IMG/VR virus record: IMGVR_UViG_3300025012_000046
Span: 1 to 64,000 of that record
DNA: 64,000 bases
Source: a virus
Strand: one strand, 5' to 3'
Under the pieces are notes generated by a model. That model was given only the letters and a program-made list of their open reading frames with translations, did no database searches and was not told the origin of the DNA. A program made the position numbers and the translations under genes. Below are positions 3,931-8,880 of this stretch, one piece after another. Each line of letters begins with the position of its first letter. Position 1 is the stretch's first letter.

Positions 3931-4182
3931 ATGAAAGTCAAAAAGGAATCTGTAGAGGAATTTACACCGTTTAATTTGGTTCTCACCATAGAGACAAAGG
4001 CAGAGGCATCTGCTCTGTATAACATTTTCAACTACACATTTAATACCGATCTTTTGCCTTCTACGTGGTACAACGAAATACAAGAGGCGATAGGCTCTGA
4101 AAACCAATACACGGATCGTGAGAACAGAATTATAGCTGGAACAACAGCTTACAGCGATTTTTACAAGCCTAAAGTGGAATGA
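3931..4182 (+). CDS. hypothetical protein, F-x-P-F paralogue 3
   Basis: AAGGAG RBS; MKVKKESVEEFTPFNLVLTIET. Confidence 0.65.
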   Translation: MKVKKESVEEFTPFNLVLTIETKAEASALYNIFNYTFNTDLLPSTWYNEIQEAIGSENQYTDRENRIIAGTTAYSDFYKPKVE

Positions 4183-4192
4183 AAGAATTGTC

Positions 4193-4221
4193 TTGACATT
4201 TTCTACGGAATATGATATAAT
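4193..4221 (+). promoter_or_regulatory. sigma70-type promoter
   Basis: TTGACA-17 bp-TATAAT with extended -10 TG. Confidence 0.85.
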
Positions 4222-4227
4222 CAAATC

Positions 4228-4524
4228 TCTTTTCAGGATTAACTGAAAATTACTTGAGGTTCTACCTCATATTAACTCTTAAGGGTTAGCTTTAAGGGAA
4301 GAACTTTACCTCTCTTATCTCCTCTGCTTCATTTCCGAACCTATGCTTCCTTCAACTCCTACCTATCTCACATTTTGTGCGACCGAAGGAGCATAGGTTT
4401 TGCAAAAGGCGACAGCCATATCCCCCGAATAAACGGGCATGGCTTTTCGCTACACCTTTCAATTTCATGTCTCACTTGAGGTCATATCTTAAATCTTGTA
4501 GCATGGTTTTAACGTAGTGGCGGT
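4228..4524 (+). ncRNA. putative structured ncRNA or long leader (~300 nt)
   Basis: no credible ORF; pyrimidine-rich unlike its flanks; about seven consecutive hairpins, including a 15-bp stem 4338-4353/4385-4399; directly downstream of a consensus promoter. Confidence 0.6.
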
Positions 4525-4540
4525 AGCTAATTACTTAACT
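4525..4540. promoter_or_regulatory. palindromic site AGCTAATTACTTAACT (1 mismatch)
   Basis: intergenic, just before RBS AAGGAGG. Confidence 0.65.
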
Positions 4541-4862
4541 GAAGAAGGAGGCACAGCATATGAAAGATTTTGCTGTAGATATGCTTATACAAAGCCTAGA
4601 CAAGCTGGATACTTTGGCAGATAAACTTCGAATGATCTACATGTGGATTAAGCAGGGAACGGTAAATAAACGCAGGTTCATCCTGTTGGTAACTCATATT
4701 ACGAAAGGAACTACACCATGAACGACAAAGAATGTGAACTGTGGATCATGAACGACGAAGGGCTTTACAACTGGTGGAAATCTTCTAGGCAAGGTATTAG
4801 AGTGTTTATCAAGGAGAACCGGGCAGAGATAACCCAGTGTATTAATAGAGCGCTTGGCAAAT

Positions 4863-4878
4863 AGCTAATTACTTAGCT
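4863..4878. promoter_or_regulatory. palindromic site AGCTAATTACTTAGCT
   Basis: overlaps the upstream stop codon and precedes RBS GAAAGGA. Confidence 0.7.
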
Positions 4879-4895
4879 GAGAAAGGAAAACAAAA

Positions 4896-5087
4896 ATGAC
4901 TAACGTATGGCGGAATCTCCGATTTTCGTAGGCATGAAGTTGTGACCAGAGAACGCATCTGTTCTGACTCAGAATACACACAAGCAAAAGAGAATATGAT
5001 AGTAAAAGGCTACCTTGACAAGAGGGTGCGATAACGCCTAGGGGAAGAAATGCGGCAGGTAATTTAGGGCTGAATTCACTTAAATAG
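4896..5087 (+). pseudogene. disrupted small gene with two frameshifts (or sequencing errors)
   Basis: RBS and ATG 4896; protein-like segments YGGISDFRRHE...KGYLDKR and GAITPRGRNAAGNL lie in different frames, joined at GGG 5024-5026. Confidence 0.45.
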
Positions 5088-5981
5088 AGATGGAGGGTTA
5101 ACATGAGCATTTCAGTAATCTACCACGTATCTGTTAAGATGCCGGATGATACACCGTATAAATCTGCAAAATACGAACAGGCTGTTGGAGAGATAGTAAA
5201 AGATGCGCTATCATCTGGACAAAACAGCTACTCAGAAATAGAAGAGTGGGCTGAGTTTCATTCTAGGCGTGAGGCTGAAGTGTGTGAGTACCAGCTTAAG
5301 AAACTGGCTGAAGCGATAGAAAGGGGTGAATTCGATGAGCATGATTACTGATCCTAATTTGATCCAACTGTTCCGTTACAAAACCTTGCTGAAAGGCCTC
5401 AGCCTGGAGATGAAAGGACTCCAACTGAGCCGTGGGCGGTCATGCTACGCTATTATCAAGAGTGAATTTGGCCTGAAAGGTAATAAAGAGAACGTGTATA
5501 AACAGTTTGAGCAATTTATACAGGAGATAGAGAATGGCACACGATGACAAATTTGGCTATCACGAAGTTTTACACACGGCGCACGTCCTAATGGATACTT
5601 GGGAGAGGCATATAGCTGGACATGGGTTAATGGAAAGTGAGCCTGAATTAAAAGCACAAGCAGAATTTATAGGCAGTATGATGGCTGACTTTTACCAATT
5701 GGTTTGTAGTGCCTCTGACTCTATGTTCGGGGAGGACTAAAATGAGGTTTGAGCATCTACTATTGGCCTTCGGTGTGTTTGTGGTGCTGTATTGTGTTTA
5801 TAGGTGGAATAAATAGGAGTGCATATGGACGAAGAACGTATGATTTACTGTGCAGGCTTAGATTATAAACAGCACTTATGTTTACCTGAGAGCGATTTAA
5901 CTAAGTGTGGTGTAGTGGTAAGGCGTAAGAAATTATTAAAAGAAGATAACTTATTGTTTAGTTGTTACGAGTGTACATACT

Positions 5982-6474: not shown

Positions 6475-7026
6475 ATGGAAAAATCAGAAATTAAACATGT
6501 ACTTGAAGAGCTTAAGCTTAGCGTAAAATTCACTTTCGTTCCTTACTCACAGACGGAAGGAGCAGTAAAAAAGCCTGCCGTTTCTGATCTTAGCATCAAC
6601 TACAAGGCTGGCGTGTACTGTGGCGAGAAGCTTATATTCTCTACGCCATACCGCATGGGTGTAGCTCATTGTCCTAGTTATGTACAGAAGTGGGGTAAAG
6701 GTGCGACTGTTAATGAGCATAAAGCAATAACATATGAATGTGAAAAAGGATTTACGGCAACAGACTTTAATATGAACTATGGAGGCAATCCTACTGGCAA
6801 GGCTATACTCCCAGACACAATTGATTTCTTCTACTGTATCTCCTCAGACACGGACGTTTTCTATCGCAGCGGGTTTGAAGATTGGGCTGAGAACTACGGT
6901 TATGACACAGACAGCCGAAAAGCAGAGAAGATTTATAATGAATGTCTGAAGCAAGCGCTGGCTTTGAGGGCTTGTATTGGTGAATCTGGTATGGGTATGT
7001 TAAGGGGAGCTTATGAGGACTACTGA
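6475..7026 (+). CDS. conserved phage hypothetical protein
   Basis: GGAGG RBS; FEDWAENYGYDTDSRKAEKIY motif familiar from phage early proteins. Confidence 0.7.
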   Translation: MEKSEIKHVLEELKLSVKFTFVPYSQTEGAVKKPAVSDLSINYKAGVYCGEKLIFSTPYRMGVAHCPSYVQKWGKGATVNEHKAITYECEKGFTATDFNMNYGGNPTGKAILPDTIDFFYCISSDTDVFYRSGFEDWAENYGYDTDSRKAEKIYNECLKQALALRACIGESGMGMLRGAYEDY

Positions 7027-7402: not shown

Positions 7403-8005
7403 ATGCCTACAGGATACACAGCAGAGATAGCAAAAGGAATTACTTTTGAGGAATTTGTATGTCAATGCGCCAGAGCATTCGGAGCGCTAATTCATCTTAG
7501 GGATGAACCTCTTAGCTCAGACATACCAGATGAGGTTATTCCTAGTGATTATCACGCTAAGGCTTTAGTTGGCGCTGAAATCAAATACAAAGAAGCTTTG
7601 GAGATTAAAGAGGAACAAGCTAAGCACTTAGCTAAGGAAGAGTTTGACGCAGAAATGCTTAGTTATCAAGATAGACTATATGAGAAACACGAACTTAAAA
7701 GAAAATACGAAGATATGCTTGCTAAGGTAAGAGCTTGGAATCCTCCTACGACAGAGCATGAAGGGCTTAAAAAGTTTATGATAGAGCAACTTACAAGCTC
7801 AATTGACTTTGACTGTAGCACTGACTACATTGAAGTACCTAAACTGAAGTCGCCTAAAGAGTGGTGTGAGAAAAACATATCTAATAAATTGTGGAACTAC
7901 AACTACCATAAAGAGGAAAATGAAAAAGAGATTCAACGTTGTAAAGAAAGAACTGAGTGGGTAAAAGCGTTGAAAGAATCTTTGAAAGGAGAAATAAAAT
8001 GCTAA
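7403..8005 (+). CDS. conserved phage hypothetical coiled-coil protein
   Basis: MPTGYTA...CARAFGA N-terminus; GAAAGGAGAAATAAAATG start. Confidence 0.75.
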   Translation: MPTGYTAEIAKGITFEEFVCQCARAFGALIHLRDEPLSSDIPDEVIPSDYHAKALVGAEIKYKEALEIKEEQAKHLAKEEFDAEMLSYQDRLYEKHELKRKYEDMLAKVRAWNPPTTEHEGLKKFMIEQLTSSIDFDCSTDYIEVPKLKSPKEWCEKNISNKLWNYNYHKEENEKEIQRCKERTEWVKALKESLKGEIKC

Positions 8006-8715: not shown

Positions 8716-8880
8716 GAAGTGCTTAAAGGTGATAGAGTCTTGTCAGACGGTGGAGCAGGCCATAGTAGCAAGTCATATGGTTGATAACTACGTGAAATAC
8801 TTCAACTATCCTAGAAACTGGCTTGAACTAAATAGTACAGCTACTAGTAAAATATTTAGCTTGATGAAAGGAGAAACGAA

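Follow-up and report, generated by a model that had tools for sequence, protein, structure and literature searches.

A structured non-coding stretch behind a consensus promoter of an uncultured phage: probably an RNA element, and perhaps the leader of an early operon

The early leader of phage T7, which is cut at R0.3, and the leader of lambda N are points of comparison for leader RNAs and their processing. In six virulent Pseudomonas phages, premature termination within the 5′-UTR gives rise to RNAs shorter than 250 nt, for which 29 candidates were reported; these 5′-UTR-derived RNAs (of phiKZ, PAK_P3, YuA, and others) were detected experimentally, by ONT-cappable-seq and Northern blotting, and they are conserved in closely related phages (bioRxiv 10.1101/2023.10.13.562163). 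The C-rich regions of RoxS pair with G-rich target sequences (PMC5419742), and untranslated RNA with a bias of C over G is what Rho uses (PMC13650167). The locus described here lies in a linear phage record of 99,505 bp (IMG/VR; estimated to be 88% complete), the first 64 kb of which are the window, that is, the whole stretch of DNA that was analyzed. At the sequence level, the feature is real. It is probably an RNA element, because a consensus promoter, the lack of an ORF, and a strong, localized folding excess coincide, and it is probably an orphan of a known category (phage 5′ leader or 5′-UTR-derived ncRNA) rather than the founder of a new one.

The ORF upstream of the locus ends at 4182. 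Positions 4225-4559 (335 nt) constitute the longest stretch without an ORF of at least 50 aa on either strand, and this holds not only for the window, for which the original prediction had claimed it, but for the whole 99.5-kb genome. Coding potential was considered and rejected: six-frame translation yielded no short ORF with a usable SD inside the stretch, and no protein-like remnant was found in any frame of either strand. The stretch was further said to be pyrimidine-rich on a strand otherwise rich in purines. Indeed, C+T makes up 75% of the 80-nt windows that begin at 4301 and 4306 (C28/G6 and C29/G7, respectively), whereas plus-strand windows between 1 and 57 kb contain 43% (sd 6%). In this 57-kb block, 4301-4380 is the only window that is so rich in pyrimidines; comparable ones are all found past 57 kb, in the part whose genes no longer run along the plus strand but along the other one. 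The GC content of the element is 38-41%.

The predicted consensus promoter is present upstream of the stretch (Table 1), and transcription from it would start near 4228. It is the only 12/12 site in the first 12 kb and one of seven perfect sites in the genome (4193, 15092, 22641, 26563, 39035, 41763, and 49975). The other six share extended flanks ("tttgcTTGACAaa...tgtgGTATAATgcgccatcttttaa"), which are absent at 4193, so that the promoter at 4193 belongs to a separate class. Furthermore, the other six are followed by conserved leaders of 24-37 nt (gcgccatcttttaa...GAGGTC...ATG), as opposed to a leader of 332 nt at 4193, which is unique in the genome. Since the six other leaders are this short, a leader of 332 nt is exceptional rather than customary for this phage. 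No plus-strand promoter scoring above 9/12 was found between 4222 and ∼9550, which means that the genes from 4560 onward depend either on the promoter at 4193 or on read-through. That these genes lack a promoter of their own suggests that termination within the leader is partial at most.

As for the six remaining promoters, all on the plus strand, the complete cassette (tttgcTTGACAaa...tgtgGTATAATgcgccatcttttaa...GAGGTC...ATG) looks like a phage-specific promoter-leader unit and is possibly the target of a phage regulator; this class-II promoter-leader pattern had no exact match in IMG/VR.

Table 1. Features in and around the non-coding stretch (positions of the window).
Feature	Position	Strand	Evidence
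Sigma-70-type promoter, TTGACA-17-TATAAT with TG extended -10	4193-4221	+	12/12 score
H1, 5′-terminal hairpin UUUUCAG/CUGAAAA, -6.7 kcal/mol	4229-4250	+	Pair probability 0.95-0.98 in four contexts
H2, hairpin UGAGGU-UCU-ACCUCA, -6.5 kcal/mol	4253-4271	+	Pair probability 0.84-0.90 in three longer contexts
Small context-dependent hairpins, 4272-78/4283-89 and 4293-99/4311-17	4272-4317	+	Complementarity; predicted in some contexts only
Single-stranded CU-rich, G-poor tract, 37 nt	4300-4336	+	Composition; unpaired in MFE and centroid
H5, 15-bp interrupted hairpin, -23.5 kcal/mol	4337-4400	+	P 0.95-0.99; inverted repeat I7, 10/10
H6, GC-rich interrupted hairpin, -19.3 kcal/mol	4408-4451	+	Pairs 4408-27/4434-51; inner stem followed by UUUU (4444-4447)
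Spacer without folding excess, ∼70 nt	4453-4523	+	z +1.0 for 4453-4559
Palindrome AGCTAA-N4-TTAGCT, one-mismatch copy directly 5′ of SD	4524-4542	+	Palindrome scan
SD (GAAGGAGG) and first cistron, ATG 4560, 53 aa	4543-4721	+	Strong SD 4546-4551
Second cistron, 48 aa	4718-4864	+	Overlaps stop of 53-aa cistron

When 4229-4545 was folded, its MFE was -83.7 kcal/mol (z -3.68), and none of 100 shuffles was as stable; a second shuffle set gave a z of -4.7 for the element. For comparison, random windows of the genome (n = 26) had a mean z of -0.29 (sd 1.0), with a minimum of -2.9. The folding excess is genuine, but all of it lies in the 5′ 225 nt (4228-4452), for which z was -4.63 and none of 200 shuffles was as stable; the 107 nt up to the first cistron show none. 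The minus strand of the element also folds well (z -2.95), and all pairs of the robust helices are Watson-Crick pairs, the only exception being a terminal G-U that closes the base of H5. Structure alone hence proves neither which strand is transcribed nor a role as RNA, and the strand was assigned from the promoter because structure does not discriminate between the two.

Of the stems drawn manually in the original prediction, 4230-36/4243-49, 4255-60/4264-69, 4338-53/4385-99, and 4409-27/4434-50 were recovered with pair probabilities of ∼0.8-0.99 in each of the contexts tried in which both arms are present. The two small ones between H2 and H5 reflect true complementarity but depend on the context, and 4449-54/4497-4502, although complementary, is not favored, owing to competition with the base of the 4408-4451 hairpin. 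Whichever of the four sequence contexts was used, H1, H5, and H6 remained stable, and H2 did so in three; in the context of 4228-4452, the MFE structure prefers a larger alternative fold and the centroid retains H2. The pairs of H1 that survive irrespective of where the boundaries are set are 4231-36/4243-48, and those of H5 are 4337-46 and 4349-53 with 4385-89 and 4391-4400.

A non-coding stretch might also be devoid of function, a spacer or decayed sequence (such as what is left of a gene that was inverted or lost) behind a promoter that serves the downstream genes only. Several observations would fit: the composition of the element is that of the antisense strand of the genes of this phage, the searches described below found no homologue, and in a GC-corrected distribution of MFE values the region is only 1.5-2.1 sd away from the genome mean, which makes it unusual, yet not the most stable place of the genome. 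In addition, the neighboring gap (4865-5102) is likewise ORF-poor and unstructured, so that gene decay may occur in this part of the genome. However, a shuffle z of -4.6 over 225 nt with a sharp 3′ boundary is unexpected for decayed coding sequence, no frame on either strand retains a trace of protein, and in a genome that is otherwise tightly packed, 335 nt of junk would be exceptional. A functionless spacer or decayed sequence is a distinctly unlikely explanation.

The structured module comprises a rut-like tract (4300-4336) and, at its 3′ edge, H6, which resembles a terminator or attenuator. H6 and its U4 rank fifth among the hairpin-plus-T4 sites in 57 kb of plus strand. The hairpin is non-canonical (its stem is interrupted, and only four U follow), and the consensus terminator scan did not report it; a canonical strong terminator was not found anywhere before the RBS at 4546-4551. 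An SD-like GAAGGAG is buried in the 3′ arm of H5, the apical loop of which is rich in C and U (AACUCCUACCUAUCU). The anti-SD-like runs on which the original prediction had remarked are present in the sequence, and the SD region of the first cistron (UGAAG-A-AGGAGG, 4540-4551) is a possible pairing partner of residues 4318-4331. With the full leader, the probability that the SD (4546-4551) is unpaired was 0.23, with 4318-4323 as its partner (P ∼0.6), compared with 0.5-0.7 without the leader, although masking of this kind is an almost automatic prediction for any CU-rich tract and was weaker in the longest context.

Three options had originally been put forward, an ncRNA, a regulatory leader, and a DNA-level signal. 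An element acting as RNA fits, and the regulatory leader is best supported, because no canonical strong terminator precedes the RBS, no other promoter lies ahead of the downstream genes, and masking of the SD is predicted. We, therefore, favor a structured leader or attenuator that acts in cis on an early operon and may also release an RNA of ∼220 nt, and rate the chance that this is correct as about even. The early unit would be transcribed by the host RNA polymerase from the promoter at 4193, with the element as its untranslated 5′ leader. Positions 4228-4452 would form a compact module, consisting of two 5′ hairpins, the CU-rich tract, the 15-bp hairpin, and the GC-rich hairpin with its U4, to be followed by an unstructured spacer of ∼70 nt and a standard cistron-start unit (palindrome, SD, and ATG 4560). 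Such a module could gate the small early genes downstream in cis in two ways. Part of the transcripts may be stopped at the 4408-4451 hairpin, either by intrinsic attenuation or by loading of Rho on the C-rich tract, and pairing of 4318-4331 with 4540-4551 may mask the first SD. Transcripts ended prematurely would accumulate as a stable RNA of ∼220 nt, as has been documented for the 5′-UTR-derived ncRNA candidates of virulent phages. We infer transcription, the 3′ end, attenuation, and SD masking from the letters of the DNA only, and the use of Rho in the host is speculative.

The same architecture could be that of a stand-alone phage sRNA of ∼220 nt (4228 to ∼4450) that acts in trans and is ended by the 4408-4451 hairpin. 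Its CU-rich seeds would pair with the purine-rich SD of host or phage mRNAs, or it would titrate an RNA-binding factor of the host. A promoter of its own, 5′ hairpins, an unpaired CU-rich tract, and the CU-rich apical loop of H5 are what such an RNA may look like, the 3′ hairpin with its U-run coincides with the end of the folding excess, and pairing of C-rich regions with G-rich targets has a precedent in RoxS (PMC5419742). On the other hand, complementarity to the rest of the phage genome did not extend beyond chance, the terminator is weak, and read-through must occur because no separate promoter serves the downstream genes. Moreover, the motifs of the element are CUCC and CCUC instead of the CCC(C) runs of RoxS and RsaE, and the Rfam model of RsaE gave no match. 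Taken together, a separate trans-acting sRNA appears unlikely.

Two specific variants of action in trans were tried and rejected. For an antisense target within the phage genome, the best matches were 13-mers at an E of 0.4; for a CsrA sponge, only a single GGA, in a hairpin loop, can be read from the sequence. A further idea is that the phage uses its one "unregulated" consensus promoter, that at 4193, to make an abundant CU-rich RNA that either imitates the anti-SD terminus of 16S rRNA or serves as a super-rut site, and that this RNA titrates SD regions, ribosomal protein S1, or Rho of the host in trans while the phage takes over the cell. We consider this quite improbable; if it were true, a CU-rich, host-titrating RNA would amount to an RNA-based device for host shut-off, which is not described for lytic phages.

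In the put RNA of HK022, promoter-proximal hairpins act on RNA polymerase in cis. A leader that promotes processive antitermination in a put-like manner, or one that serves as a site of RNA processing and stability of the RNase III type, at which the leader would be freed from the early mRNA as in T7 or lambda N, would suit the position of the element, directly behind the only promoter of its class and at the head of a long array of co-oriented plus-strand genes with few good terminators, and H5 is a long, interrupted helix. Yet a pair of boxA and boxB is not evident, the only boxA-like sequence being a 7-mer, CUCUUAA, that is expected by chance, and with no more than 15 roughly contiguous pairs, H5 is short for RNase III. 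Antitermination or processing is improbable on these grounds.

The remaining option is a signal at the level of the DNA, such as an injection stop like that of T5, an origin of replication, or a packaging site. The injection-stop region of T5 is located in the long terminal repeat, next to the pre-early genes dmp/A1/A2. It is a non-coding region of 1,662 bp with repeat arrays, 131-bp inverted repeats, and eight paired DnaA boxes (bioRxiv 10.1101/866236). The present locus resembles it in that the early arm of this phage, whose replication genes are distantly T5-like, likewise contains a non-coding stretch with hairpins and palindromes; one end of the record is ∼4 kb away, and several palindromes cluster nearby. 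However, no DnaA box (TT(A/T)TNCACA) was found between 4183 and 4560, and the eight in 64 kb compare with 9.1 expected. Repeats within the element are short (8-22 nt at 68-100% identity); iterons, direct-repeat arrays, and long inverted repeats, including any of 131 bp, are lacking, as is an AT-rich unwinding region. At ∼335 bp, the element is five times shorter than its T5 counterpart, and here a consensus promoter reads into it. The end of the record is, moreover, the end of an assembly and not a mapped terminus, and end repeats were not detected in this linear, 88%-complete record. The analogy to the T5 injection stop, which was part of the original prediction, was consequently abandoned, and a DNA-level role of any of these kinds is highly improbable.

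The element was also said to end at a palindrome, and a one-mismatch copy does adjoin it (Table 1). The palindrome is, however, a feature of cistron starts and lies outside the structured module. It has eight matches in the window, compared with 0.07 expected, and copies with no or one mismatch cluster at 1.5-11.1 kb. Those at 1501, 4525, 4863, 5982, and 7126 are situated 1-5 nt before an SD and ATG, the one at 8846 being a weaker case. This placement suggests an RNA hairpin, or an operator tied to translation starts, rather than a transcriptional operator. Within 4863-5102, a perfect palindrome-SD-ATG unit (ATG 4897) opens an ORF of only 11 codons, after which an ORF-poor gap of 238 nt without folding excess (z +0.33) extends up to the gene at 5103; 4863-5102 may be a broken small gene. 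An 18-nt stretch (CAAGCTAAGCACTTAGCT) that contains the palindrome is identical at 2889-2906 and 7616-7633, where it belongs to two different ORFs, both reading QAKHLA.

The element matches no described RNA family, in agreement with the original claim that it is undescribed. With Rfam 15, whose families include riboswitches, 6S RNA, tmRNA, known phage RNAs, ribozymes, and RsaE, nothing in the whole window reached the gathering thresholds, and a permissive scan of the element returned chance-level matches only, to eukaryotic families (E ∼1 or worse); ARAGORN found no tRNA or tmRNA. Searches for kin of the element likewise gave no result. Blastn against cultured phages, E. coli genomes, and plasmids detected no DNA homologue, and neither did nhmmer and blastn against 160 loci. 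IMG/VR was scanned with both flanking small proteins, the polymerase, and protein P0002, which led to no homologue of the element, and the pattern of the H5 arms had no match there. A covariance model of 4300-4452, run on the window, the whole genome, and the relative described below (G001), recovered no further copy of the region, the best foreign match reaching 11.6 bits (E 1.1).

The phage itself belongs, according to protein searches, to a clade of phages of roughly 105-115 kb. Its PHROG matches include DNA polymerase, helicases, ligase, an SbcC-like protein, and RNR. The likeness of the replication genes to T5 is distant only, with a polymerase that is 28-29% identical to those of T5-group phages and at most 29% identical to that of any cultured phage. 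Within the clade, the polymerase is 66% identical in P0059, which is encoded on an ENA contig of 112,145 bp, and 44-49% identical in others. A contig of 114,660 bp carries the identical P0001, and these two contigs belong to the closest relatives at the protein level. A search of the RNR gene against GTDB genomes gave a hint neither of kin nor of the host. One relative, found via a polymerase alignment (A2) and compared (G001; IMGVR_UViG_3300024999_000057; loci L243-L248; 102,669 bp; polymerase 45% identical; GC 50% compared with ∼40% here, from the composition table), is syntenic with 12.8-57 kb of the window and retains the gene order of the replication and structural modules. In this one relative, the ORFs of window positions 1-12.8 kb have no homologues, and no leader comparable to 4225-4559 is present. 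Its early genes are entirely different and in the other orientation, with divergent promoters near 96.8-98.1 kb.

The small ORFs neighboring the element have no Pfam match. A 183-aa ORF farther downstream (6475-7026; alignment A1) belongs to a widespread family of phage proteins without a Pfam domain, relatives of which are encoded by more than 460 metagenomic stretches. Its invariant residues are F21, S25, Y59, P113, F134, D146, S147, R148, and A150, with the motif G-Y-D-x-D-S-R-K-A-E. When used as a route to kin of the phage, in IMG/VR and metagenomes, this family led to unrelated phages only. Homologues of the 48-aa ORF (4718-4864), 54% identical, occur in unrelated phage contigs (L104:220-351 and L024:8210-8347). 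In the first of these (L104), a member of the 183-aa family follows immediately downstream of the homologue, a hint that the two genes form a conserved pair.

If the leader is transcribed as predicted, it would provide a clear computational case of an early operon that opens with a long, discrete, structured RNA, in an uncultured lineage distant from T5, and the contrast with the six short, conserved leaders points to a separate layer of early-gene control, for instance by attenuation, Rho loading, or SD masking. Like the early leader of T7 (from A1-A3 to R0.3) and that of lambda N, it spans several hundred nucleotides from a strong, host-type early promoter to the first early cistron, with a hairpin near the first RBS; unlike these, to which it has no homology, the hairpin next to the RBS is a 6-bp palindrome common to several cistron starts and not a long RNase III site. 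With RoxS and RsaE of Firmicutes it has in common unpaired, pyrimidine-rich segments that could pair with G-rich SD regions, and the strong SD and the extended -10 used by the phage are compatible with such a host. It differs from them in that it gives no match to the Rfam model, contains motifs of mixed C and U instead of C runs, is twice as long, is encoded by a phage, and is continuous with an mRNA. Rho-dependent leader attenuators and rut sites of the lambda tR1 type share with the locus a stretch of ∼80 nt of untranslated RNA with C in excess of G, downstream of an early promoter, which is interrupted by a hairpin and followed by pause-type hairpins. Here, however, H5 is predicted to take up half of the C-rich stretch (4300-4336 is unpaired, but 4337-4353 is part of the hairpin), and nut-like boxA and boxB were not recognized. 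The 5′-UTR-derived ncRNAs of virulent phages differ from the element in that it is known from sequence alone, shares no sequence similarity with them, and has a putative terminator that is weak (H6 with U4, which has an interrupted stem and a short U tract and was missed by the consensus scan). The likeness lies in the arrangement: a promoter of its own, followed by a short, structured RNA (here a predicted one) of <250 nt without a translatable ORF, a terminator or, in the present case, a terminator-like hairpin inside the 5′-UTR, and read-through, here presumed, into the downstream mRNA. If transcribed as predicted, the element, for now a candidate, would join the few phage RNAs known to derive from a 5′-UTR.
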